In this document: positions 4,002 to 59,150 of the stretch, in pieces | How positions within the stretch are numbered: position 1 is the stretch's first letter | Layout of the letters: each line of letters starts with the position of its first letter | From: Nanobdellota archaeon | Lineage (GTDB): Archaea > Nanobdellota > Nanobdellia > Woesearchaeales > DATGWN01 | Assembly (NCBI GenBank): GCA_051819685.1 | Contig: JBNJGI010000003.1 | Coordinates: forward strand, 1 to 59,150 | Reading direction: 5' to 3' | DNA: 59,150 nucleotides | Made by a program: the position numbers and the translations under genes | Notes under the pieces: generated by a model | Databases searched by the model: none | What the model was told of the DNA's origin: nothing | What the model saw: only the letters and a program-made list of their open reading frames with translations

Positions 4002-5131
4002 TTTTTATCACCTTCTAAACTTTTAAAAAACTTTAATAAAATATATCTATTAGTTTTATCTTTCATTTTTTTAAAAACAATAAATTTATTTGTGAATTTT
4101 GCATATGCTTTTTTATCTATTTTTAAATTAAAATTAGTTTTCTCATCTATATTGACTAAAGGCGCGTTAAGCATGTTAGAGAATTCTATTGTCCTTTCAG
4201 CCCAATCTCTTGCGTCTGTTTTTAACATTTCATTCGAAATTACAAAGACTAACGGTTTTTTATATAATATTGCAGTCATATTTGATGTAGTTTCATGACT
4301 TATGCAAAATTCTGAATATTTAATCAAATTAGTTGTTTTATATTTAAATATTTTTCTTTTTCCAAACTCATTTGTATAATTGGCTTTAGGATGTGCAGCG
4401 ATAACAACTTCTAAATCATATTTCTTTTCTAAATAATCAAAAAAACTTTTTAAAGCTAAATAATATTTTTTAGGTTTTACACTCTTCCCAATCTGTAAAA
4501 TATCTGATAAAAAAGGAATATTGGAATCTAAAAAAACCGCATATTTTTTTTTAACTAATTTTTTATGATTTTTTAAAGATTCTAAATAATCTAAATATTT
4601 AATATTATGTATGTGTATATATTTTTTTGCAAGACCAAAATCTAAACCAGGTTCGTTAATTTTATAATTTAAAAGTAAATTTCTTTTAAAAGTCTTATAA
4701 TACACTTGTCTCAAAGGATAAAACAAAAATAATTGAATTGCGATTTTTTTGATTAGTGAAGTTTTTTTGCTTTTTAATTTTGATTTTAATTGCATATATG
4801 TGGCAATTGTATGCTTAGAAAAATGAACTAAAATTGCCTCATACTTTTTTAATAAGTTAAAAAATTCTCTTTCTTTAATATGTGGAGAAAAAAATAGAAA
4901 AATTAATTTTTCATTTTGAGATCTCAAAAGATGAATCAAATCTTTTTTTGAATTTACATTCTTGACATTTTTTAGCTTAGTTTCATAACAAAAATAGGTA
5001 CAGTCAGGATTATATATTTTTGTCAAATCCCATAATTCTAATTTAAAATGTTCTTTTAAAAAATGAATATCCAAATCTTTTTCTTCTTTTTTAGTAAAAG
5101 GCTCGCTCATAGTTACAAAAATAAGTTTCAT
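3998..5131 (-). CDS. Hypothetical surface-carbohydrate biosynthesis protein; candidate ulosonic-acid transferase
   Basis: 377 aa with no motif I can name firmly (VIAAHPK...). The call rests on its position between a GT4 gene and the kdsB-like gene, with translational coupling. Confidence 0.3.
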
Positions 5132-9284: not shown

Positions 9285-9898
9285 CTAATTACCTCAAAAG
9301 CTTCGGCAAATTTTGAAGAGATTTGAGCACCTCTAAAAAAGCACATACCTTTTATAACATCAGGTTTTGTATAATCCCTGTTATTTTGAGTTTCATATTT
9401 TGATACAGATTTAACTTTTTTCAACACATTTTGTTCAGATAATTTTATATAATAATTTGTATTAAATGAAAAATTATTCCACATAAACTCATAACCTAAA
9501 ATGGATTTCGTTTTAAAAGCTCTTAAACCCTCTTCATATATAGTTTTATGATCTTGGTGAATATCTTTTGAAGAAGGCATAAAAATTATATCAGGATTGA
9601 TTTTTTCTTTTAGATTTATTAATTTATCAAGAATTTTTTGCCTATATTCAGGAAAATTGCGTACAGGAAAATTAAAAATAAATCTATTTTCTTCTTTAAT
9701 ACCTAAAACATTTGTTGCTTTTATACATTCTTTTTTTAAAATATCATCAGGATAACCTTCTGGTATAGACTTTTCACAAATAGAAAACGCAACATAAAAA
9801 ACTTCATTTCCTTCTTCAATATATCTAGAGATAGTTCCACCACAAGCTAACTCCCCATCATCTGTGTGAGGAGAGAGTATAAGTATTTTTTCATTCAT
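9272..9898 (-). CDS. PIG-L / LmbE-family N-acetylsugar deacetylase
   Basis: ILILSPHTDDGELACGGTI matches the (A/S)PHPDD...GGT signature. HQDH follows later. Confidence 0.75.
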   Translation of the reverse strand: MNEKILILSPHTDDGELACGGTISRYIEEGNEVFYVAFSICEKSIPEGYPDDILKKECIKATNVLGIKEENRFIFNFPVRNFPEYRQKILDKLINLKEKINPDIIFMPSSKDIHQDHKTIYEEGLRAFKTKSILGYEFMWNNFSFNTNYYIKLSEQNVLKKVKSVSKYETQNNRDYTKPDVIKGMCFFRGAQISSKFAEAFEVIRWVK

Positions 9899-11016
9899 TT
9901 TAATAAATCCTCATATAATTTGATTAATTTCTTTTCTTCATTTTCCCAATTATAATTTTTTAAAGCCTTAAATGAATTTGAAGAGTACAGATTATAGTTA
10001 TAATTGATCTTTTTAAAAGCTTTTTGAATTTCTTCAGAATTAATTTTATCTAAAGCAAATCCTAAATTATTTTCATCTATATATTTTTTCATAAAAGGAT
10101 TAAAACTAGTTCCTATTATCGGTAATTTCGCCATAGAGTATTCCATTAGCTTTGTTGATATCCCATCTCTTCTTTTAGGAGTGTTATGGAATAATACTAA
10201 TCCAACCTTTGCTTTTGAAATTTCATTTAGCACCTTTGAATATGGTAAATTTTCAATTAAATCTATATTTAACTTATTTTTTTTTATTATAGACTTTAAT
10301 TTTCTCCTTTCTTCAATTAAACCTGATAATATTAAAAGAATACTATAAGGAGTTTTTTTAGAAAGTTCTAAAATATCATAAATACCTCTTGATTTATTAG
10401 TAGTACCACAATATACAAAATCATATTTTTTGTTTTTAACTATTTTTTTTCTTATTCGAGGGAAATTAGATATACAATGAATATTTTTTTTATATCTATT
10501 AAATTTTTTTTTGTGGTGTTCTACTACTACCAGTATAGTATCGGTAAAAAAAACAAAAAATTTTTCATAAATATGTGCTACTTTAGACAAAATGAATCTT
10601 TTAAAATTACTCATATAATCTGTTTCATTAATCATTTTAATGAAGTCTTCATGCATATCATATATTACTTTTCCTCTTTTTATTAATTTTAAATAAGGAG
10701 TTAATATTAAATCCTCGAAGTCATGTATATGATATACTCTGCTTTTAACTTTTCTTAAAATTTTAAATAATTTAATAATAGAACCTAAGATTTGTTGTTG
10801 ATTACCTTTTATTCCATAAATCACATAATTTTTTCCTTTTATTATTTCTTCTTTATCATTATTTATTGCCAATATTAGAACATTTAAATTTAATTTATTA
10901 ATTAAACTCATAGTTTCTTTATGAAAAATTCTATGATCCTTTAAAGGGTGTCTGGAAGAGACCATACAAACATCATATTTTTTATTTAAAAATTCTTTTC
11001 CCTTCATTGATTTCAC
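9895..11016 (-). CDS. Glycosyltransferase (GT-B, GT4-like)
   Basis: 373 aa. The C-terminal region ...DGISTKLMEYSMAKLPIIGT resembles the GT4 E-x7-E region. Embedded in the operon. Confidence 0.6.
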   Translation of the reverse strand: MKSMKGKEFLNKKYDVCMVSSRHPLKDHRIFHKETMSLINKLNLNVLILAINNDKEEIIKGKNYVIYGIKGNQQQILGSIIKLFKILRKVKSRVYHIHDFEDLILTPYLKLIKRGKVIYDMHEDFIKMINETDYMSNFKRFILSKVAHIYEKFFVFFTDTILVVVEHHKKKFNRYKKNIHCISNFPRIRKKIVKNKKYDFVYCGTTNKSRGIYDILELSKKTPYSILLILSGLIEERRKLKSIIKKNKLNIDLIENLPYSKVLNEISKAKVGLVLFHNTPKRRDGISTKLMEYSMAKLPIIGTSFNPFMKKYIDENNLGFALDKINSEEIQKAFKKINYNYNLYSSNSFKALKNYNWENEEKKLIKLYEDLLK

Positions 11017-26936: not shown

Positions 26937-27749
26937 TTATTCTATTGAAAATTCTTTTAACACATCCTCTTCCATGAAATGTAGTTTTGAAGGTATAATT
27001 AAAGAATGTAGAGGGCCTCCAAATTTATGTTTCATTACTTTTTTTAAAGTTCCGTAAGCAATTTCCTGCTCATTTGTTCCAAGTCTTGCAGTTCCTATCA
27101 CTTTTGTGTTCTTATCAATTACTTTTTCTTTGTATTTATCTTCAAGATCAAGAAGTTGTTTTAATGCTTTATTTACATCCATAAAACGAGGTTTTAACTT
27201 CTTTTCTATTCCTTTAAGCATATTTTCCCGAGCTGTTTCAGCTATTTTTATATCAAGAAGAATAAGTGTGTGTGCACCTATGCTTTGATTTTCTTTTATA
27301 CAATCATAAACATTTCGGGGCATCCAGTTTTCTTCAAAAAATACCATCGATGTTGTTTTTCCAAACTTATACACTTCAAACCCTATGTTTCCCACAGCGT
27401 TCATTATAGAAGCATTATTTATTATATTTGTCTTAACACCTGACTGCTTAGCCCTTAATAAAAAATCAGAGTGTGTGGTTGCACAAAATACATCTCCTGC
27501 TACTAAAAAAGCCACTTCAAAATCTTTAGCTTTCGATATTATGTCATCAGACCTTTGTTCAACCATTTCTCTTGATGCCAATATGATATTTTTACCATAT
27601 AATTCTTCCATCTTTTCGATTGATGAGAAAGGCATTATTGAAGTATAATGCTCAAGATAAATATAATCGCATTTCTTTATTGTTTCCAATCCTTTAATAG
27701 AAATATCTTTCTCGTCACTTAATCCCAAACCTATCATGTGTAATGTCAT
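26937..27749 (-). CDS. dphB: Diphthine synthase
   Basis: MTLHMIGLGLSDEKDISIKGLETIKKCDYIYLEHYTS is a tetrapyrrole-methylase-fold Dph5 signature. 270 aa. Confidence 0.9.
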   Translation of the reverse strand: MTLHMIGLGLSDEKDISIKGLETIKKCDYIYLEHYTSIMPFSSIEKMEELYGKNIILASREMVEQRSDDIISKAKDFEVAFLVAGDVFCATTHSDFLLRAKQSGVKTNIINNASIMNAVGNIGFEVYKFGKTTSMVFFEENWMPRNVYDCIKENQSIGAHTLILLDIKIAETARENMLKGIEKKLKPRFMDVNKALKQLLDLEDKYKEKVIDKNTKVIGTARLGTNEQEIAYGTLKKVMKHKFGGPLHSLIIPSKLHFMEEDVLKEFSIE

Positions 27750-27792: not shown

Positions 27793-27947
27793 TAGTAGAC
27801 GACATAAGATTGTTATATTTTTATATTGCCTTGCAGAAAACCCAGAAATTTGGCTAGACTAATTCTGTCAAATTTCGTAATAGTTAAACCATTAGTGTTT
27901 AATTATCCTGCGCCATATAAAATATACTTTATTTATGTCATCTACTA
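27793..27947 (-). mobile_element. MITE-B copy B1 (full length, 155 bp)
   Basis: Ends TAGTAGACGACATAAG ... TTTATGTCATCTACTA form 15-16-bp TIRs. The interior is near-identical (reverse complement) to 43988-44141 and 45300-45454. Confidence 0.8.
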
Positions 27948-28110: not shown

Positions 28111-28155
28111 AATTCACCAAAAAATACATAAAGGGATTATTTTCTTTTTATTTAC

Positions 28156-28229
28156 GGGCCTGTAGTATAGTCTGGACAGTACAACCGGCTTCGGACCGGT
28201 AAACCGGGGTTCAAATCCTCGCAGGCTCA
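28156..28229 (+). tRNA. tRNA-Arg (anticodon UCG)
   Basis: Manual cloverleaf. Acceptor stem GGGCCTG/CAGGCTC, D stem GTAT/GTAC, anticodon stem ACCGG/CCGGT. Anticodon loop is CTTCGGA and the T arm is CGGGG-TTCAAAT-CCTCG. Discriminator A; no encoded CCA. Confidence 0.85.
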
Positions 28230-42304: not shown

Positions 42305-43538
42305 TTTTTATTATTTTGAATATTTTATCGTTTTTTCTTAATTTTTTATTTGTAATAAATGTTATTATGTCGCCTTTTTCTGCTTTTTCTATAGATTGTC
42401 CGTCTTTTCTCATTTCTTTAACTTCAGCCCTATAAACTCCTGTAGTAGGGCCTGTGATCATCACTTGATCGCCTTTTTTTAAATCATTAGTATATATTCT
42501 GAATTCTCCCACTGATTTTTCTTTAAAATAGTTTTTTACCACTCCTAAACTTATTTTTTTCTCTTTTGCTTTAGAGCCATATATTCCCGACCATTCACCT
42601 GTACTGCTTCCTAAATAATACCCTCCATTCCAGAATCCCCTGTTGAATACTTTTTTCAATTCCTCTTCATATTTTTCTTTTTTATTTTTAGTGTATGTTT
42701 TTTTATTTATATCTTTCAAGGCATCATGGTACACTTTTACTACTTTATCTACATATTCTGCATTTCTTCCCCTACCTTCTATTTTTAAGACTTTTACACC
42801 AGCTTCTATTATTTTATCAAGTATTTTTATTGTACAAAGATCTTTAGGAGACATTATGTATTTGTTTTCTATTTTAAGTTCATCTCCTGTTTCTTCATCT
42901 TTAACTATATAAGATCTCCTGCATGCTTGTAAACAAGCACCTCTGTTTGCAGATTTGTTGTATTGTGCGAGACTCATATAACATTTTCCTGATATAGCCA
43001 CACATAAAGCCCCATGAATAAATAGTTCTATTCTTAATCTTTTCCCAGAAGGTCCTTTGATATCATTTTCTTGTATTTTATCGCATATTTCTTTTATCTG
43101 ATTGAGATTGAGTTCTCTTGCTAACACTATAACATCAGCATATTGTGAATAGAATTTTACTGCTTCGAAATTGGAAATGTTGCATTGAGTTGATAGATGG
43201 ACTTCAAGACCTATTTTCTTTGCATAAGTTATTATTGAGATATCGCTCGCAATTATAGCATTTATTTTATTTTTTTTAGCTTCATCGCATAACTTCTTAG
43301 CATTTTCTATATCTTCGTCATATAGTATTGTATTTAGTGTAAGATAGGAAATAATTTTGTTTTTTCTGCATATTTCAGATATTTTCGGTAGATCTTCTTC
43401 TTTGAAATTAGCTGATCTTGATCTCATATTAAGATTACCGAGACCAAAATATACACTTTTCGCCCCCGAATTAATCGCTGCTCTTAAAGATTCAAAAGAT
43501 CCTGCCGGAGCCATTATCTCTATCTCTTCATTCATCAT
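42297..43538 (-). CDS. Peptidase U32-family protein
   Basis: EIMAPAGSFESLRAAINSGAKSVYFG... and the Cys-rich E..HGALC...G.C..S region are typical of U32. Confidence 0.8.
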   Translation of the reverse strand: MMNEEIEIMAPAGSFESLRAAINSGAKSVYFGLGNLNMRSRSANFKEEDLPKISEICRKNKIISYLTLNTILYDEDIENAKKLCDEAKKNKINAIIASDISIITYAKKIGLEVHLSTQCNISNFEAVKFYSQYADVIVLARELNLNQIKEICDKIQENDIKGPSGKRLRIELFIHGALCVAISGKCYMSLAQYNKSANRGACLQACRRSYIVKDEETGDELKIENKYIMSPKDLCTIKILDKIIEAGVKVLKIEGRGRNAEYVDKVVKVYHDALKDINKKTYTKNKKEKYEEELKKVFNRGFWNGGYYLGSSTGEWSGIYGSKAKEKKISLGVVKNYFKEKSVGEFRIYTNDLKKGDQVMITGPTTGVYRAEVKEMRKDGQSIEKAEKGDIITFITNKKLRKNDKIFKIIKNG

Positions 43539-43788
43539 TTTTGTCTATTATTTCCATACCTTCCAGAAATTTTAGGCCTGCATCAGTTATTTTGATATAT
43601 AGGTAAGGTTCTTCTTCGTGTTTTTCTATAAGTTTCTTATCTATCAATTCATCAAGATAACCTACCATCTGTTTGTAAGAAAGATTTGCTTTATACATTA
43701 GTTTAGTTTGTTTAATCTTACCTTTTGATTTTCTTATTTCAAATAATATTTTGTAGAAAATCCTGAATTTACTCCTTTTTTTGCTCAT
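43528..43788 (-). CDS. Small winged-helix DNA-binding protein
   Basis: 86 aa with an archaeal wHTH pattern (...KQTKLMYKANLSYKQMVGYLDELIDKKLIEK...ITDAGLKFLE). 11-bp overlap with the U32 gene. Confidence 0.6.
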   Translation of the reverse strand: MSKKRSKFRIFYKILFEIRKSKGKIKQTKLMYKANLSYKQMVGYLDELIDKKLIEKHEEEPYLYIKITDAGLKFLEGMEIIDKNDE

Positions 43789-43831
43789 ACCATTAGTTAT
43801 TGATTTTTATTAATAAATGTTTTTGAAAATT

Positions 43832-43983
43832 ACCATATAAAATAAAATGAATGATGATATTGCCTTAAAGTAAAGCTTGAATTTAAAGTTATTAGTTAAA
43901 GACTTACAGGAGCGCAATTTCAATCAATTTTGCCCGGAGGTCGAATATTTGTTCGCAATATAACTCACTTTTGTGATTGTGCC
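43832..43983 (-). mobile_element. MITE-A copy A6 (152 bp, inverted orientation)
   Basis: Its reverse complement is collinear with A3 (GGCACAATCACAAAAGTGAGTTATATTGCGAACAAATATTCGACCTCCGGGC...). Abuts MITE-B2. Confidence 0.8.
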
Positions 43984-43987
43984 AAAA

Positions 43988-44141
43988 TAGTAGACGACAT
44001 AAATAAAGTATATTTTATATGGCGCAGGATAATTAAACACTAATGGTTTAACTATTACGAAATTTGACAGAATTAGTCTAGCCAAATTTCTGGGTTTCTG
44101 CAAGGCAATATAAAAATATAACAATCTTATGTCGTTAACTA
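43988..44141 (+). mobile_element. MITE-B copy B2 (154 bp)
   Basis: TAGTAGACGACATAAATAAAG...CTTATGTCGTTAACTA. Near-identical to 45300-45454. The track ORF 43924..44124 lies inside it and is spurious. Confidence 0.8.
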
Positions 44142-44187
44142 AAAGAGAAGAACTTTTTTAAAAGGTAAAAAAATATCCGCTGGTTTT

Positions 44188-45135
44188 ATGATTAATTTAC
44201 ATATAGAGCCTAGAAAAGTTTACAGCTGGGATGAATTTGTAAGGGATAAAGGTGAATATTCGATATCTCTTGATGGTTTCGTTAATTCTAAGACTATAAG
44301 GGATTCTAAAGGCCCTTGCGCTAATTATAATCATCATGAAGATGTTGATCGACTTTCTACAAGATCAACTTCAGAACAGGTTTATATGGATATTAATACT
44401 GGCTTATTTAAAATTTTCAGGAAAGGAGAAGAACCTTTTGCGAATATTTTCATTAATGACCCTGATGAAGATACATGTCTTTCTTGGTGGCTTTTGAAAA
44501 ATTACAGAAAAGTTAGTAATTATTCTGGTAATAGGATTGAAAAACTTGTAGATTTTGAGGATAAAATGGATTGTACAGGTGGAGCTTTCCCTTTTATGGA
44601 TAAAGAGATGAAAATGGAAGCTGCATGGATTTTTGAACCGTATAATAAAGCGAAATTAAAAGGAAAAATTGCTGATATGGGAGTTGAAGATATGAAAAAT
44701 ATCGTTTCTGATGTAGAAAAAAGAATTGATGCTTATATTGTTGATAAATCTGAAAAAATCAAGCTTAAAGGGCATTATAAGGTTTTGAAAGAAGGTAATG
44801 GTTGGACGATGGTTAAAGAGACTGGTCCTGAATCAAGATTAGCAATGTATGATGATGGAATTAATGCTTTTATATCTATCATAGCGGAAAGATTGGATGG
44901 AAGCAGGGTTGTTACTTTAGGTAGAAAATCAGAATGGATACCTTTCTATATAGAAGAAGCTTATAAAAGATTGAATGAAGCAGAAAAAGAAATTATATCA
45001 AATGATAACTGCTGGTCTGGAAGCAATCTTTATGGAGGATCTCCAAGGAAAACAGGTACTAAATTATCATTGGAAAAAATATGTGAAATTATAAATTCTG
45101 CAAGTAAAGCAGTATCTCCGATTAATGATTATTAG
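44188..45135 (+). CDS. Uncharacterised 315-aa protein with His/Asp-rich motifs (possible metal-dependent hydrolase); flanked by direct MITE-B copies
   Basis: Motifs NHHEDVD (aa 48-54) and NDPDEDT (aa 90-96). I cannot assign a family by eye. Confidence 0.6.
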   Translation: MINLHIEPRKVYSWDEFVRDKGEYSISLDGFVNSKTIRDSKGPCANYNHHEDVDRLSTRSTSEQVYMDINTGLFKIFRKGEEPFANIFINDPDEDTCLSWWLLKNYRKVSNYSGNRIEKLVDFEDKMDCTGGAFPFMDKEMKMEAAWIFEPYNKAKLKGKIADMGVEDMKNIVSDVEKRIDAYIVDKSEKIKLKGHYKVLKEGNGWTMVKETGPESRLAMYDDGINAFISIIAERLDGSRVVTLGRKSEWIPFYIEEAYKRLNEAEKEIISNDNCWSGSNLYGGSPRKTGTKLSLEKICEIINSASKAVSPINDY

Positions 45136-45256: not shown

Positions 45257-45296
45257 AAGGCAATATAAAAATATAACAATCTTATGTTGTTGATTA
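45257..45296 (+). mobile_element. Partial MITE-B right end, tandem duplicate of the right end of B3
   Basis: 45257-45299 is identical by eye to 45415-45457 (43 bp). The match includes the copy-specific mutations and the 3 bp TTC beyond the element. Confidence 0.75.
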
Positions 45297-45299
45297 TTC

Positions 45300-45454
45300 T
45301 AGTAGACGACATAAATAAAGTATATTTTATATGGCGCAGGATAATTAAACACTAATGGTTTAACTATTACGAAATTTGACAGAATTAGTCTAGCCAAATT
45401 TCTGGGTTTTCTGCAAGGCAATATAAAAATATAACAATCTTATGTTGTTGATTA
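45300..45454 (+). mobile_element. MITE-B copy B3 (155 bp)
   Basis: Full-length copy in the same orientation as B2. It ends 43 bp upstream of ATG 45498. Confidence 0.8.
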
Positions 45455-45497
45455 TTCTTAAAGAAAATTTATAAAATATAAGTTCAATTAATTTTTT

Positions 45498-46391
45498 ATG
45501 GAGAAAAATAATTTAAAAGTAATATTCCATAGAAGGGCTGAATGGCTAAGAAATTATTCTGATGAGATTTATGATAAAATTATTACTTGTCTTCCTCCTA
45601 ATATACATTCTGTCAAATATAGGATAAAAGAATTTGATTCTTTTTTTAATAAGACTTTGAGGAAAGGGTATAAGAATCCTTTAAAACAATGTACTGATAT
45701 TCTTGGTTTCAGAATTATCTGTCTTTTCCATAATCAGGTGGAAAGCGTAAGAAATTCTTTGGATAAGCAATTCAATATTATTGAAGATTTTGAGAGAAAA
45801 AAAAGCTGTGATCAGTTTTCATATCAATCAAGACATATAGTTTGTGAAATGAAAGGGCTAAGGTTCGAAATACAGATAAGAACTATCCTTCAGGAAGCCT
45901 GGGCTGAGATAGAGCATTATTTTAATTATAAGCAGATTGGTATAGATGAAAAGAATCTCAGGAAAATTAATGCTCTTGCTGCACTTTTTGAGATTGCAGA
46001 TAGCCAGTTCGAAAATATTTATAATAATTATAACGATATTAAGAATAAGCCTTTAGATTCTGGAGATATGACTCCCGAAGCGCTTTATTATTATTGTAAA
46101 GATAAATTTCCTTGGGCTTGGAAAATGCCTGAGCAATTCAATGTAGAAAATATTGAGGAGTATAATAAAATTGTTAATTTTGCAGCTAAAAAAGGTATTA
46201 GTACTATTAAGCAGATTGATGAAGCTTATAAACGTAATAAAGATGAGATTGATAAATATGATAAGTATCATGTGAATGAGATTCTTGATAATCCTGTACA
46301 ATGGCCAAAAATTTATGAGAAAGTAAAAAAGACTAATCATTTTTTTAGTCCTATTATGATACTTTCAATAATTTTGAAAGAAATGATATAA
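45498..46391 (+). CDS. RelA/SpoT-domain protein: stand-alone (p)ppGpp-synthetase-fold enzyme (small alarmone synthetase / toxSAS-like) with an uncharacterised C-terminal extension
   Basis: Ordered synthetase motifs YRIKEFDSFFNK, DILGFRII, YQSRH and EIQIRTILQEAWAEIEH. No HD hydrolase, TGS or ACT regions. Confidence 0.75.
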   Translation: MEKNNLKVIFHRRAEWLRNYSDEIYDKIITCLPPNIHSVKYRIKEFDSFFNKTLRKGYKNPLKQCTDILGFRIICLFHNQVESVRNSLDKQFNIIEDFERKKSCDQFSYQSRHIVCEMKGLRFEIQIRTILQEAWAEIEHYFNYKQIGIDEKNLRKINALAALFEIADSQFENIYNNYNDIKNKPLDSGDMTPEALYYYCKDKFPWAWKMPEQFNVENIEEYNKIVNFAAKKGISTIKQIDEAYKRNKDEIDKYDKYHVNEILDNPVQWPKIYEKVKKTNHFFSPIMILSIILKEMI

Positions 46392-46395
46392 TTAT

Positions 46396-49134
46396 TCATC
46401 TGATTTTGAATAGTCCGTGATTCCTTTCCATATATTTTCTTAATTCTTCACTAGCAAGCAGGAATGCCCCTGCAAGAAACATCCAAGGTAAATATTCCAA
46501 AGGGAATGTATTGGTACTGAATATTTTGGATAAAGGATGGAAAAATATAAGCAATAGTAATAGTATTGTTTCTGATGCAATTCCAAGGAGAACTATCTTG
46601 TTTTTTAGTATGCCGGCTTTGAAAACTGACATTTTAGAAGTTCTGCATGCAAATACATTGAACATCTGAGTTATTATTATTGTTGCAAAAAAACCAGTTA
46701 CAGCGCTTTGGTAAAGAGGATTGGAGGCGGAAGGCACTCCTTGAGAAAATTCCCAGCCTCCCTGAAATAATATGGAAAAAAATACTAAAAATGAAAATAA
46801 AGCTTGTAAAGGCCCAAAATATCCATATGATCTTAATATCATTCTGTTATTGCATAGCTTAGAGTTTGGGTCTCTCGGTTTACGTTCCATTATGTCTGAA
46901 GAAGGAGGTTCTACTCCTAAGCCTATAGCGGGAAGCATATCTGTACCAAGATCAATCGCAAGTATGAGTAATACTGTCAGAGCCAACGGCCAGTTGAAAG
47001 GAGCTAATAGTACAAATAATAAGTAAGGTATTATTTCAGGGCCGTTACTTGTAAGTATATACATAATAAAACTTTGTATATTATCATAAACTGTCCTTCC
47101 ATATTCGATTGCTTTAGAGATTGTTGCAAAATTATCATCAAGAAGAACTATGTCTGAAGAATCTTTAGCTACATCTGTTCCGGTTATTCCCATTGATACT
47201 CCTACATCAGCTTTTTTCAGTGCAGGTGAATCATTGACTCCATCACCAGTAACTGCAACTATCTCATCTTTTTCCTGTAATGCTTTTACTATCCTAAGCT
47301 TATCTTCAGGTAATGATCTTGCAAAAATTAGTTCTTCGTAATCAAGGTTTTGTTTTAATTCATTATCATCCATTTTAGATAATTCTTCGCTTGTGATTAT
47401 TTTTGCGTTATTTTCAGATACTATTCCTACTTGATTAGCAATACTTTTTACTGTATTCCCCTGATCGCCTGAGATAACTATTATTTTTATTCCTGCTTTT
47501 TTGCATTTTTCAACTGCTTTTTTAACTTCAGGTCTTGGAGGATCCTGCATCATTATAAGACCATAAAAGATATAATTTTCCTTTTCAAGATTTTTCTCAT
47601 TGTTTTTTGTTAATTTCTTTGAGGCGAAGCCTAATACACGATATCCTTGTGATGAGTATTTATAGTTTTCATCAAGTATTTTCTTTTTTTCTTTTTTAGT
47701 GAGTTTTTTGAATTTGCCGTTTGAAAAGATATATGTGCATTTATTTATGAGTACTTCAGGAGCACCTTTTATGTATGCTTTTTTTGTCTTTCCTATTGAA
47801 TTTGCCGTTATCATATATTTTTTGCTTGACTCGAAAGGTATTTCGAATATCCTTTTCATTTTTTTTATGAAATATTCTATATTCGTGAAGTTTGATATGA
47901 ATTTTTTCAGACAGATTTCAGTAGGATCTCCGGAACTTTTTTCTGTACTGACATCGTAAGTGCTGTTGTTGCAATTGATTAATGTGTCTTTCATTTCATT
48001 GGATCCTGGTATTTCATGTATGTTCACTTCTTTACCTTTTAGTTTTATTGATTTGTTTTCTTCATTGAAATTGTATATATTTCCGTTCATATAGAAGCTA
48101 TTGACCGATAATATGTTTTTGGTAAGGGTTCCTGTCTTGTCTGAACATATCGTTGTAAGGCTTCCTAAAGTTTCAATTGAATCTATGTTCTTGACCAGAG
48201 CATTTTTCTTTGCCATTTTTTGAGCAGCAATTGAAAGAGTTAACGTAACAGTTGGAAGGAGTCCTTCCGGAACATTAGCTACTATTATACCGATAGCAAA
48301 AACCATGTTCACCCAGAAAGTATTACCTTGAAGAAATCCTAAGAGAAAGAATATGAATCCTAATGTTATCGCTATAGAAGATATTATTTTTATGAATTTG
48401 GCTAACTGTAATTGCATGTGTGTCTGTTTTTTTTCTACTGATCTTGTCATGGTAGCAATCTGACCTATTTTTGTGTCATCACCTGTATTCAAAACTACTG
48501 CTTTCCCGGATCCGTTTTGTACAAGAGTGCCACTGAAAATCATATTTCTGCTTAATATAGGATCATCATTAGTCCATTTTAATGATCTTAACTGAGGTTC
48601 GCTTTCACCTGTCAATGTTGAGTGGTCAACTTTAAGATTGAAACATTCTATGATTCTCGCGTCTGCAGGTATTTTATCTCCTTCCCTTAATAAGAATATA
48701 TCACCTGGAACAAGATTTTCTGAATCTATTTCTTTTTCTTTGCCATCTCTTATTACAGTGACTTTAGTAGTCATGAGATTCTTGAAAGATTTCATAGCCT
48801 GTTCAGCCTTAAATTCTTGTAGATAGGTGAATAAAGCATTGAGTACTGTTACTCCTAATAGCGCCCACCCTATATAATCAGATCCTTGTCCTGGAGAAAT
48901 ATAATCACTTATAAAAGAAAGTCCTGCCCCTATAAGTAAGAGTATGGAAAAAAAATTTTTGAACTGTAAAAGGAACTTGATAATTTGAGGAGTATCTTTT
49001 TTTTCAGTAAGCTTATTCTTGCCTTTTTCTTTTATTCTTTTGGAAGCTTCTTCCTGCGACAATCCTTTTTCCGAAGTTCTTATTTCAGAGAATAATTTTT
49101 TCAGAGGTATTTTATGCTTTTTTTGCTGTGACAT
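46396..49134 (-). CDS. P-type cation-transporting ATPase (P2-type, Ca2+ or Na+/K+-like)
   Basis: TGES, PEGL, CSDKTGTLT and TGDGVNDSPALKKADVG motifs. 912 aa with ~10 TM segments. Confidence 0.9.
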   Translation of the reverse strand: MSQQKKHKIPLKKLFSEIRTSEKGLSQEEASKRIKEKGKNKLTEKKDTPQIIKFLLQFKNFFSILLLIGAGLSFISDYISPGQGSDYIGWALLGVTVLNALFTYLQEFKAEQAMKSFKNLMTTKVTVIRDGKEKEIDSENLVPGDIFLLREGDKIPADARIIECFNLKVDHSTLTGESEPQLRSLKWTNDDPILSRNMIFSGTLVQNGSGKAVVLNTGDDTKIGQIATMTRSVEKKQTHMQLQLAKFIKIISSIAITLGFIFFLLGFLQGNTFWVNMVFAIGIIVANVPEGLLPTVTLTLSIAAQKMAKKNALVKNIDSIETLGSLTTICSDKTGTLTKNILSVNSFYMNGNIYNFNEENKSIKLKGKEVNIHEIPGSNEMKDTLINCNNSTYDVSTEKSSGDPTEICLKKFISNFTNIEYFIKKMKRIFEIPFESSKKYMITANSIGKTKKAYIKGAPEVLINKCTYIFSNGKFKKLTKKEKKKILDENYKYSSQGYRVLGFASKKLTKNNEKNLEKENYIFYGLIMMQDPPRPEVKKAVEKCKKAGIKIIVISGDQGNTVKSIANQVGIVSENNAKIITSEELSKMDDNELKQNLDYEELIFARSLPEDKLRIVKALQEKDEIVAVTGDGVNDSPALKKADVGVSMGITGTDVAKDSSDIVLLDDNFATISKAIEYGRTVYDNIQSFIMYILTSNGPEIIPYLLFVLLAPFNWPLALTVLLILAIDLGTDMLPAIGLGVEPPSSDIMERKPRDPNSKLCNNRMILRSYGYFGPLQALFSFLVFFSILFQGGWEFSQGVPSASNPLYQSAVTGFFATIIITQMFNVFACRTSKMSVFKAGILKNKIVLLGIASETILLLLLIFFHPLSKIFSTNTFPLEYLPWMFLAGAFLLASEELRKYMERNHGLFKIR

Positions 49135-50224
49135 TTTTATTTAGTTTCTTTTTTGTATGTTTTTTATGAATTTTGTATGTTGATACTATCAGGAGACTTT
49201 CAGCCCAGCCAAGAGGTGAATTCTCATTGTAATGATCAGTATTTGAGAAATATAATTCAGGTTCTTCTCCTTTTTCGTTAATTGTTTCAAGAGCTGCTTT
49301 TTCATAGGCTTTAGCTTTTTCTTTATCTCCTATTTTCTGGTATATTATAGAAAGCCAACTGAGACCGAAGGTCCATTCTGCTTCTTCTGAATAACCATCA
49401 GGGTTCCTGTTGTAATAGTAGTCATTCTTGTATCTTATGACTCCTTTTTTTCTCAAAAGGTGGTATTCGATATTTGTCAGTATATCTTCCCTTTGTTTTT
49501 TGTTGACTATATTGTAAGGATATATGAGCGATAATAATGCAAGATCTACAAATTTCTTGTCGGATTCTCTTGGAAGTAATTTACTTAAAGTTTTTTTTCC
49601 ATGTTCTATTAATGTAGGGAGTACATTTATTCCTTCTATGCCTGATATCTTTTGTAGCCCCGCAACACAAGCTCCTACTGATGATGCATGTATTTCTTCA
49701 TCTTCTTCCCACATCCCACTGTCATAATCGTGCCAGTATTGTATTGATTGGAGGTAATCCACCAGAAGCTGTACTATTTGATAGTCTTCTTTAGTTTCAA
49801 GTATAGTGAAACTTTTACCATGTTCTTTATGAGTAGCTAATTCTCCTATTTTATATAATATAGCACCTATTGAATCGTTTTGTTTATTTCCCCATTCTTC
49901 CCAGAATTCATTGAATGTTTCAGGATGAAATCTTGCATGGATGTATTGCCATCTTTCTTTCGGTCTTTCTCTTATGGCGTGTTCTATTTTTTCTTTATGT
50001 TTCTTGAAAATAGCTAATAATGCTTTGTATGTTTTCTGGACTGTCTTCCAATCACCCATAACTTCAAATGCTAAACATTCATAGAAGTTGTCTCTTAACC
50101 AACTTTTGTCATATCCTGTGTCTACTTTCTTGTTTGAAGCTGCAAAAAGTCCTGAATCATATTGAAGATCCCTGAGTATATTTATATGATGTTTTATAAG
50201 AGCATTATAGCTTAACATTTTCAC
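49112..50224 (-). CDS. Glycoside hydrolase family 15-like (glucoamylase-type (alpha/alpha)6 barrel, catalytic domain only)
   Basis: SWLRDNFY (W-x-RD) and DSGMWEEDEEIHASSVG (WEE general-acid region) motifs. 370 aa. Confidence 0.6.
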   Translation of the reverse strand: MKMLSYNALIKHHINILRDLQYDSGLFAASNKKVDTGYDKSWLRDNFYECLAFEVMGDWKTVQKTYKALLAIFKKHKEKIEHAIRERPKERWQYIHARFHPETFNEFWEEWGNKQNDSIGAILYKIGELATHKEHGKSFTILETKEDYQIVQLLVDYLQSIQYWHDYDSGMWEEDEEIHASSVGACVAGLQKISGIEGINVLPTLIEHGKKTLSKLLPRESDKKFVDLALLSLIYPYNIVNKKQREDILTNIEYHLLRKKGVIRYKNDYYYNRNPDGYSEEAEWTFGLSWLSIIYQKIGDKEKAKAYEKAALETINEKGEEPELYFSNTDHYNENSPLGWAESLLIVSTYKIHKKHTKKKLNKNVTAKKA

Positions 50225-53582: not shown

Positions 53583-54326
53583 TTAGTTTGCTAATTCTTT
53601 TTGAAGAAGTTCATCTATTCTTTGCATGATATTTATCACTTTTTTATTGAAGTCTTGTTCCATCTTTAATTTACTAATTTGTGTATAGTATCCCCCTGCT
53701 GATGCAACTTGACCTGCTGATAAGTTTTCATTATTTTTCAACCTTTTTTCCACCATTTTTTCGAAATCATTAAGAGTTTTTTCATTCAATTTTTCTAGTT
53801 TATTTATTTGTTTAGTTTTTTGATTATTAGCTTTCATGTATGTCTTTATAGATTTCGCATTAACTTTTCTACATTCTATAATCAGTTTATTTTTTGATTC
53901 TTTATTTTCCCAGTTTGTATCAAGTAGCTTAGAAAGAAGGTAATATAAGCTTCCTTTATCTTTTGAGCCAATCAGAAAACATCCTTCGATTACTAACCTA
54001 CATTCACTAAGACTCATTTCATCAGGATTATATTTTTTGTAATTCTGATAACTTAATTGAGAATAGCCATAATTATCATTGTTTCCGATTATTTTTTCTG
54101 ATAAGTTTTCATAATGTTTAAGTTCTTCAGGTATTTGAGTTTTATTTCCATTCTCGACTTGAATAATCTCTTCTTTAACTTTTTGTTCTACTTGATTATT
54201 CTTATTTTTGTCCTGAATTCCACAACCTGTTAAAAAAACAGAAATTGCAGCAATTTGCAATAATCTTTTTAGTTTTCTTTTTTTATCATTCATGAAAACA
54301 TTTTTTATCTGATTTTTTAATCTCAT
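53583..54326 (-). CDS. Putative lipoprotein, unknown function
   Basis: Signal-like N-terminus with the lipobox-like FLTGC. 247 aa. Confidence 0.5.
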   Translation of the reverse strand: MRLKNQIKNVFMNDKKRKLKRLLQIAAISVFLTGCGIQDKNKNNQVEQKVKEEIIQVENGNKTQIPEELKHYENLSEKIIGNNDNYGYSQLSYQNYKKYNPDEMSLSECRLVIEGCFLIGSKDKGSLYYLLSKLLDTNWENKESKNKLIIECRKVNAKSIKTYMKANNQKTKQINKLEKLNEKTLNDFEKMVEKRLKNNENLSAGQVASAGGYYTQISKLKMEQDFNKKVINIMQRIDELLQKELAN

Positions 54327-54396
54327 GCTATTTCTAATTTTAGGATTAATTAATAAATTTTTTTAAAATATAATCAGCTATATATGATTTTTCTAT

Positions 54397-54455
54397 TTTT
54401 TTATTGTCTTGCAGAAAAACCAGAAATTTTGGCTAGACTAATTCTGTCAAATATT
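54397..54455 (-). mobile_element. MITE-B relic B5 (internal fragment)
   Basis: TTGTCTTGCAGAAAAACCAGAAATTTTGGCTAGACTAATTCTGTCAAAT matches the B1 interior. Confidence 0.6.
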
Positions 54456-54462
54456 GACAATT

Positions 54463-54500
54463 ATAATAAATTGAGTGATATTGTGAAAAATGTTTGTTAA
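54463..54500 (+). mobile_element. MITE-A relic A8 (left-TIR fragment)
   Basis: AAATTGAGTGATATTGTGAAAAATGTTTG compared with AAAATGAGTGATATTGCGAACAAATGTTCG. Confidence 0.55.
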
Positions 54501-58973: not shown

Positions 58974-59150
58974 ATGGTAAAAAGTAGAACCGTAAAGAAA
59001 GTAAGTCCTAAAAAAGGATTAAAGAAATCTGCTGCAAAAAATACTGCAGCGAAGAAACCTGTGGCTAAGAAATCTAATGCGAAGAAAAGTACTGCAAAGA
59101 AACCTGTGGCTAAGAAATCCACTGCGAAGAAAAGTACTGCAAAGAAACCT
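58974..59150 (+). CDS. Lys/Ala-rich repeat protein (histone H1-like / nucleoid-associated candidate); C-terminus runs off the window end
   Basis: MVKSRTVKKVSPKKGLKKSAAKNTAAKKPVAKKSNAKKSTAKKPVAKKSTAKKSTAKKP..., in frame to the last base of the window. Confidence 0.6.
   Translation, partial: MVKSRTVKKVSPKKGLKKSAAKNTAAKKPVAKKSNAKKSTAKKPVAKKSTAKKSTAKKP
59052..59150 (+). repeat. 45-bp tandem repeat (2.2 units) encoding KKPVAKKS(N/T)AKKSTA
   Basis: Units are 59052-59096, 59097-59141 and a partial 59142-59150. They differ at 2 positions. Confidence 0.8.

Follow-up and report, generated by a model that had tools for sequence, protein, structure and literature searches.

A second MITE family in a Nanobdellota archaeon, with copies docked and stacked at a fixed distance upstream of TATA-like boxes

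Copies of two families of short inverted-repeat elements, MITE-A and MITE-B, lie side by side at two places in a 59,150-nt stretch of DNA from a Nanobdellota (DPANN) archaeon (contig JBNJGI010000003.1, here C3; hereafter the window), and the question is what brings them together. The original prediction described MITE-B from the sequence letters, remarked on the two juxtapositions, and proposed that the two families may be mobilised by related machinery or may prefer each other's flanks as targets. Both juxtapositions are as it described, with gaps of 9 nt between B1 and A2 and of 4 nt between A6 and B2 (Table 1). We addressed the question in the assembly to which the window belongs (930 kb in 44 contigs, 29.6% GC, 87% complete), taking the copy census from nhmmer searches with profiles built on full copies, and the gene map, which is 87% coding, from our own ORF-based calls.

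We find that MITE-B is a second, genuine MITE family. The nhmmer searches returned 93 matches to B and 160 to A in this 0.93-Mb genome, and the two families occupy 2.9% of the genome and ~22% of its non-coding DNA. The B matches comprise 21-28 near full-length copies, ~22 left halves (positions 1-85) and ~31 right halves (61/73-155); they are dispersed over at least 30 contigs, and ~26 units have both ends. Among the A matches, 71 of the 160 are near full length. MITE-B is 155 bp long, and its 15-bp TIRs, TAGTAGACGACATAA and its complement, are those originally given, are conserved over the B copies and lie within a ~45-bp imperfect terminal palindrome. No ORF of 80 or more amino acids overlaps the B copies. 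Alignment bears out the description of B1, B2 and B3 as full, near-identical copies, with interiors that are 98-100% identical and with 97-98% identity of each copy to the family consensus. Identity to the consensus is 94-98% in eleven B copies, a sign that the family has been active recently. Both relics noted in the window are real, although the one near 54.4 kb extends further than had been claimed and continues into a piece of A. We also observed 43-46-bp mini-B derivatives, scarcely more than two inverted ends, some of them with matching 3-bp flanks. At the far end of the window, positions 59022-59141 hold an AAGAAA-rich tandem repeat of 15-nt period and lysine/alanine type, apparently within a coding region that extends past the window.

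The triplets AAA, AAA and TTC that flank the three full copies had been judged unconvincing in AT-rich DNA. The triplets are there, and the judgement does not survive the genome-wide count: an exact 3-bp duplication flanks 19 of 26 intact B units, including four of the seven composites described below, while mismatched flank pairs, used as the control, give an expectation of 8.6%. Duplications of 4-6 bp yield at most one match per length, and only 3 bp works. The duplicated triplets are TAT, TTT, AAA, TTC, TAA, ATA, ATT, TTA, ATC and AAT. Elements of the IS5 family and PIF-Harbinger-like elements duplicate the triplet TNA or TWA; only a minority of the B triplets fit TNA, and PF01609 and PF13359 have no match in the assembly, so that we rejected this assignment. 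Judged by these footprints, MITE-B is probably a non-autonomous DNA transposon without coding capacity that makes a 3-bp target duplication.

In these respects it resembles other prokaryotic MITEs, such as the Correia elements of Neisseria and SM1-SM4 of Sulfolobus (PMC10969869, PMC11602168), with which it shares a length of ~150 bp, TIRs, a fixed-length duplication and the lack of an ORF, and likewise intergenic copies numbering in the tens, derivatives that are nested or truncated, and a restriction to one genus or species. It differs from them in that its sequence is new and that no parent insertion sequence was seen. It also differs in its very high density: A and B together give 253 matches in 0.93 Mb, against an archaeal maximum of 146 per Mb (PMC11602168), with counting methods that differ between the two figures.

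A transposase gene enclosed by B ends was looked for and is absent from the assembly. More broadly, the profiles DDE_Tnp_1 (PF01609), rve (PF00665), DDE_Tnp_4 (PF13359), DDE_3, Transposase_mut, TnpB-type, IS1595 and ISL3 gave zero matches in this 87% complete assembly. Pairs of B ends lying 0.4-5 kb apart, considered as the borders of an autonomous parent, enclose housekeeping genes or composites and no transposase gene; orphan B ends, considered as traces of such a parent, turned out to be truncated or mini-B copies. Self-BLAST found no dispersed repeat longer than ~500 bp besides the composites. Beyond this genome, B was found in none of 40 relatives, and rve genes, present in 37 of 151 genomes of the same order, never have B-like ends. 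A search with the B end pattern returned one chance bacterial match and one contig identical to C18 from the GTDB representative genomes, and five matches from JGI metagenomes, none of them homologous to B or A. The contig, JBNJGP010000157.1 (4.1 kb), is filed under a 'Candidatus Muiribacteriota' MAG, is 100% identical to C18 15391-19494 and contains copies of both families. Either misbinning or a contig common to several bins of one sample is the probable explanation.

Table 1. Positions of MITE-A and MITE-B features in the window (contig C3) and of related loci on other contigs
Feature	Contig	Position	Strand	Remarks
B1, full MITE-B	C3	27793-27947	-	3-bp duplication AAA (plus strand); right end toward promoter of minus-strand gene 26937-27749, 43 nt to start codon
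TATA-like box of gene 26937-27749	C3	27772-27779	-	13 nt past B1 right end; flank tttcttagttaaa + AATATAAA
A2, MITE-A copy	C3	27957-28110	+	perfect 8-bp duplication AATTCACC; tRNA-Arg(TCG) 28156-28229 lies 45 nt downstream of right end
A6, older MITE-A copy	C3	43834-43983	-	83% to reference copy; right end 45 nt to start of minus-strand gene 43528-43788; left end faces B2
B2, full MITE-B	C3	43988-44141	+	3-bp duplication AAA; right end 46 nt to start codon of gene 44188-45135
TATA-like box after B2	C3	~44155-44162		TTTTTAAA; starts 13 nt after B2 end
Old diverged MITE-B right part (model positions 62-153)	C3	45204-45296	+	abuts B3
B3, full MITE-B	C3	45300-45454	+	3-bp duplication TTC; right end 43 nt to start of gene 45498-46391
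TTTATAAA after B3	C3	45468-45475		begins 13 nt beyond B3 end
B relic, left end (first 33 nt of element)	C3	50272-50304	+	left end 47 nt to start of minus-strand gene 49112-50224
B[A]B composite relic	C3	54371-54498	-	B right half (model 71-153) 54371-54456 and A arm 54465-54498; B right end 44 nt to start of minus-strand gene 53583-54326
Mini-B	C7	28256-28301
Mini-B	C25	9870-9912
Mini-B	C1	27239-27284
Mini-B	C14	~4950-4993
165-nt insert in MITE-A (this and the next four among others)	C3	21773-21997
165-nt insert	C1	26939-27105
165-nt insert	C27	5197-5363
165-nt insert	C9	11062-11218
165-nt insert	C14	10918-11082
A::B chimera	C2	65238-65394
A::B chimera	C20	7727-7860
A::B chimera	C6	33814-33911
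Stacks, B after A	C2; C3; C1; C19	25922; 43984/43988; 44115; 9241		predicted gap 4 nt; 4 loci
Stacks, B after B	C3; C22; C6 (twice); C39	45296/45300 (C3)		predicted gap 3 nt; 5 loci
Stacks, A after A				predicted gap 8 nt; 4 loci
Stacks, A after B				predicted gap 7 nt; 2 loci

The proposal that related machinery moves both families can be tested on the elements themselves, and it is not supported. MITE-A makes 8-bp duplications, for example CAAAATCT, ATAGAATA and AATACCAG, and its tips read GGCACA..., whereas the B termini read TAGTAG... and are unrelated to them. Overall homology between the two consensus sequences was also rejected, as 50 of 500 shuffles attain the score of their global alignment. 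Duplications that differ in length and tips that are unrelated point to a different transposition chemistry, and thus to different transposases for A and B. What the two families have in common is a length of 154 vs 155 bp, a long terminal hairpin, an 11-mer at a matching position and a habitat at the edge of promoters.

The last of these likenesses is defined by a narrow register. Taking as a box any match to TTTATAAA at 7 or more of its 8 positions, so that TATA boxes here are simple word matches rather than mapped starts, we found that a box starts at offset 13 in 35 of 92 B termini, with other offsets represented at most 4 times each. For A, the box starts at offset 14 in 30 of 175 termini, again with at most 4 at each other offset; the two registers differ by one nucleotide. 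A separate tabulation of the offsets yielded identical modes. Measured to the start codon, with gene starts taken from our own ORF calls, the distances of the A and B termini peak at 40-46 nt, and at 41-46 nt for both families when every terminus is counted. The right end points toward a gene start in 25 of 26 intact B units and lies 40-46 nt from the start codon in 13, left ends lie at that distance only twice, and the right end is thus promoter-facing in 13 of 15 docked intact units. We considered and rejected the possibility that the element carries the promoter with it: the 13 nt that separate end from box differ among copies, and the duplicated triplet directly adjoins the element. Because this flank varies between copies, except for an A-rich BRE-like stretch, the promoter must lie outside the element. 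Within positions 28111-28229, a TATA-like word also occurs between the right end of A2 and tRNA-Arg(TCG), which is the sole Rfam match in the window, and promoter docking may perhaps include tRNA promoters too.

Such a register could in principle be left behind by selection. Insertion would then be random, elements landing less than ~13 nt from a TATA box would destroy the promoter and be lost, and the scarcity of neutral DNA would cause the survivors to crowd against promoter edges and one another. It is true that the genome is 87% coding, that intergenic regions tolerating one element often hold another, and that some divergent spacers, such as 43789-44187, measure only ~95-100 nt without both elements and offer few free nucleotides. 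A wall of this kind, however, predicts a one-sided tail rather than 35 of 92 B termini and 30 of 175 A termini at exact offsets. Nor does the free space in other spacers behave as expected. In spacers between tandem genes, distances on the promoter side cluster tightly, with 25 of 60 at 42-47 nt, those on the stop side spread from -35 to 493 nt, and placement departs from uniformity (KS test, p = 0.002); elements remain at the promoter edge even where up to hundreds of nucleotides are free on the stop side. Convergent spacers of similar residual length are the least occupied: of the spacers that retain 60 nt or more of residual DNA, elements are found in 17% of convergent, 32% of tandem and 47% of divergent ones, and the number of matches per kb of residual spacer is 0.97, 2.47 and 3.78, respectively, rising with the number of promoters. 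We therefore regard selection acting by itself as an unlikely source of the register. Target choice, probably of a bent or protein-bound BRE/TATA region, appears to have produced it, with the reservation that only fixed insertions are visible and that target choice and selection elsewhere are not fully separable.

The two registers would also account for the juxtapositions. Adjacency of A and B does exceed chance genome-wide: a free A and a near-full B share an intergenic region with an odds ratio of 5.1 (p = 1e-4), and co-occupancy persists within divergent spacers (odds ratio 5.8, p = 0.004). If each newcomer docks at its own offset from the same TATA box, then the gap it leaves would equal its own duplication length, plus or minus the one-nucleotide difference between the registers. 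The 13- and 14-nt offsets and the two duplication lengths predict gaps of 4, 3, 8 and 7 nt for the four possible orders of arrival, and each class is populated (Table 1), while 0.02-0.09 loci per gap class are expected; for the 4-nt class, 4 loci were observed against ~0.09 expected. Two loci make up the 7-nt class, one of which, C10 15005, contains a local duplication of unexplained origin. There, at C10 14980-15210, an A copy has a ~25-nt segment resembling the B right end on both sides (TGTAAGATGATTAT.TCGCTGA.TA), an arrangement that simple insertion does not explain.

By the logic of target duplication, the order of arrival is visible at single loci. At C2 25922, removing B together with one copy of its triplet restores a perfect 8-bp duplication of A, GTTTATAT, and B came after A. 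At C17 6229, the perfect duplication of A, ATTTACGG, starts with the terminal base of B, a TATA-like box follows 14 nt after A, and A came after B. In nearly every stack, B is closer to the promoter than A, with C14 11195 as one exception. No B copy is found inside any A copy, although an A body offers 154 bp and the gap only a few nucleotides; that newcomers settle in the 1-4 nt beside a resident A and never in its body is a further point against selection alone. The pairs that raised the question are a special case. B1/A2, and probably B2/A6, lie between divergent promoters, in the arrangement gene, 43-45 nt, element, gap, element, 45-46 nt, gene or tRNA. In these pairs, each element may be docked to a promoter of its own, and the pairs provide no test of stacking.

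Since the gaps follow from registers and duplication lengths, recognition between A and B is not needed, and independent fixed registers upstream of TATA boxes are a simpler cause than the proposed preference of each family for the other's flanks. A more specific form of that preference would have the B transposase recognise resident termini, those of B as well as of A, and insert beside them in the manner of IS30 and IS911. IS911 makes a 3-bp target duplication, and members of IS3 have TG...CA tips. The IS30 duplication is 2 bp (PMC9333248), and both IS30 and IS911 insert beside resident ends to create end-spacer-end junctions, with a spacer of the duplication length and with sequence conversion (PMC9333248, PMC3299598). 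MITE-B is similar in its 3-bp duplication, within the 2-4 bp used as a criterion for this comparison, and in five junctions in which 3 nt separate two B ends. Two of these, window 45296/45300 and C22 9959 (9805-9990), show a young B abutting the right end of an old B and sharing its private right-end variants and 3 bp, which resembles the conversion described for IS30 and IS911 (PMC9333248). In the window, exactly TTC separates the old right end from the left end of B3, and the final 42 nt of the old copy equal the B3 right end, private variants included; positions 45282-45299 and 45440-45457 share both these variants and the flanking 3 bp.

The exact 4-nt gap to A ends at four loci would likewise fit insertion beside a resident end. 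The A and B termini, however, have no sequence in common, and B is nearly always on the promoter side of A. No neighbouring element intervenes between the promoter and most docked B ends (35 have a box at offset 13), so that recognition of ends fails to explain the register. The 4- and 7-nt gaps follow from the offsets of 13 and 14, and repeated docking at one promoter predicts the 3-nt junctions equally well. There are also differences from the model systems: the B tips are TA...TA rather than TG...CA, one B junction joins left end to left end, a type that IS30 does not make, and the cognate transposase of IS3 and IS30 would have an rve (DDE) fold, for which PF00665 has no match in the assembly. 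End-targeting as the cause of the stacks is in our estimation quite improbable. B may nevertheless target its own ends in addition to docking at promoters, and the two loci with shared variants hint that it may use a copy-out-paste-in enzyme of the IS3/IS30 kind.

Elements also meet by insertion of one into another, as is known for pneumococcal repeats, where MITEs insert into one another (PMC10969869). Most B halves are broken at one place. We found seven intact composites of the form B(1-85)-A-B(78-155), ~316 bp long and with identical junctions. On the left, ...ACGAAATTT(G/A) is followed by AGCACATC; on the right, ...AAGTTTC is followed by AATATTTGACAG. Together, these junctions form an 8-bp duplication of B GAAATTTG (positions 78-85), with the same two changes in all copies. 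The A parts have decayed tips and form a single clade, and the composites carry 3-bp duplications of their own. Consequently, the composites have a single origin: one A inserted into a B, and the product was then amplified through the B ends. Two of the seven are longer (~470 bp), with a third insert of 165 nt within the A part; these triple-nested B[A[insert]]B composites are 88-93% alike. The ~165-nt insert itself, GC-richer and non-coding, occurs at a fixed site in MITE-A (~model position 43-57) at 12 or more loci. Partial forms, B-left with A or A with B-right, are frequent and probably arise from recombination among the many A copies.

There remains the 11-mer CAAGGCAATAT, which was correctly reported as common to the two families. 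It lies in the right arm of both, in the same orientation, at position 119 of the A consensus and 115 of the B consensus, and is their longest common word. Of its occurrences, 43 are in A copies, 36 are in B copies and one lies elsewhere. In first-order Markov simulations, 11 or more shared bases arise in 1.9% of cases (p ~0.02), and a local 17-nt block around the word gives p ~0.016. The sharing is therefore marginally beyond chance, and chance, convergence and old exchange are all possible. At least three A::B chimeras, with an A left part and a B right end, are joined exactly at CAAGGCAATAT, which indicates that the word has acted as a recombination junction. The B-type ends of the chimeras also lie 13 nt from a TATA-like box.

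A conserved word within a structured repeat invites a functional reading, in which A and B are regulatory or structured-RNA cassettes that the host retains as upstream promoter elements or insulators, with CAAGGCAATAT as the binding site of a factor and with position and orientation kept by selection. Long branched hairpins form in the folds of both families (B, z = -3.2; A, z = -5.9), and in them the 11-mer, well conserved at the same right-arm place, sits at the inner end of the terminal hairpin, and the promoter faces the right end of intact B units 13 times and the left end twice. Hairpins, however, follow automatically from inverted ends, B has no Rfam match, and we rejected it as a structured RNA. 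The motif departs from randomness only marginally, the searches of other genomes did not find B, and target duplications, truncated relics, nested copies and the 43-46-bp derivatives are what selfish transposition and decay produce. We judge retention for a host function to be very improbable.

We thus return to mobile elements that dock at promoters. According to this account, B would be moved in trans by a transposase missing from the assembly, and this enzyme would be distinct from the mover of MITE-A, which makes 8-bp duplications. Insertions of both families would fall in a register one nucleotide wide on the upstream border of archaeal core promoters. Counted from the first base of the TATA box, the B terminus would lie 13 nt and the A terminus 14 nt upstream, which would place them ~43-45 nt ahead of the start codons of leaderless genes. 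Elements reaching the same promoter one after another would stack end to end, with the newest element beside the promoter, and a single A that inserted into the centre of a B would have given rise to the 316-bp composite, amplified via the B ends. We assign a probability of about 0.7 to this account as a whole.

Precedents for promoter-guided insertion come from bacteria. TnGBS and the ISLre2 and ISKra4 elements, which have prokaryotic Mutator-like DDE transposases, insert 15-17 bases upstream of sigma-A promoters with the right inverted repeat on the promoter side (PMC3942029). MITE-B behaves alike, at 13 nt upstream of a TATA-like box and with its right end on the promoter side in most docked units. 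The bacterial elements act on sigma-70-type promoters and have their own transposase, whereas B is a non-autonomous archaeal element with a 3-bp duplication and is accompanied by no Transposase_mut gene in the assembly; the likeness suggested here is one of behaviour, and we do not claim membership. In the literature that we searched, a single-base register to the TATA box is not described as a property of MITEs, and we found no published description of promoter-guided integration of archaeal elements, so that the present case is possibly a first for archaea. What is new here is that a 3-bp-duplicating and an 8-bp-duplicating family have nearly the same register in one genome, and that the arithmetic of stacking explains the A/B juxtaposition.

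That two unrelated elements in one genome have nearly the same register argues that the promoter complex or the shape of its DNA, rather than a particular transposase, directs integration. With a slight lean in its favour, we propose that the archaeal core promoter presents at its upstream edge a landing beacon, probably the BRE/TATA region bent by TBP/TFB, which at least two mechanistically unrelated transposases read at single-base precision. If so, then the outer cut would fall 13 nt from the TATA box for a 3-bp cutter and 14 nt from it for an 8-bp cutter, promoters would be stacking sites, and the order of elements would record their order of arrival. The beacon would be an archaeal counterpart of the targeting seen with TnGBS in bacteria and with Ty3 in yeast, and it would belong to the target instead of to one transposase lineage. 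For annotation, the A/B juxtapositions in the window would be read as ordinary stacking and not as a composite functional unit. In genomes that lack transcriptome data, docked MITE ends would locate promoters to the base, and stack order would provide relative insertion ages. Finally, landing at such a beacon would explain how DPANN genomes that are ~87% coding hold hundreds of MITEs without gene loss.
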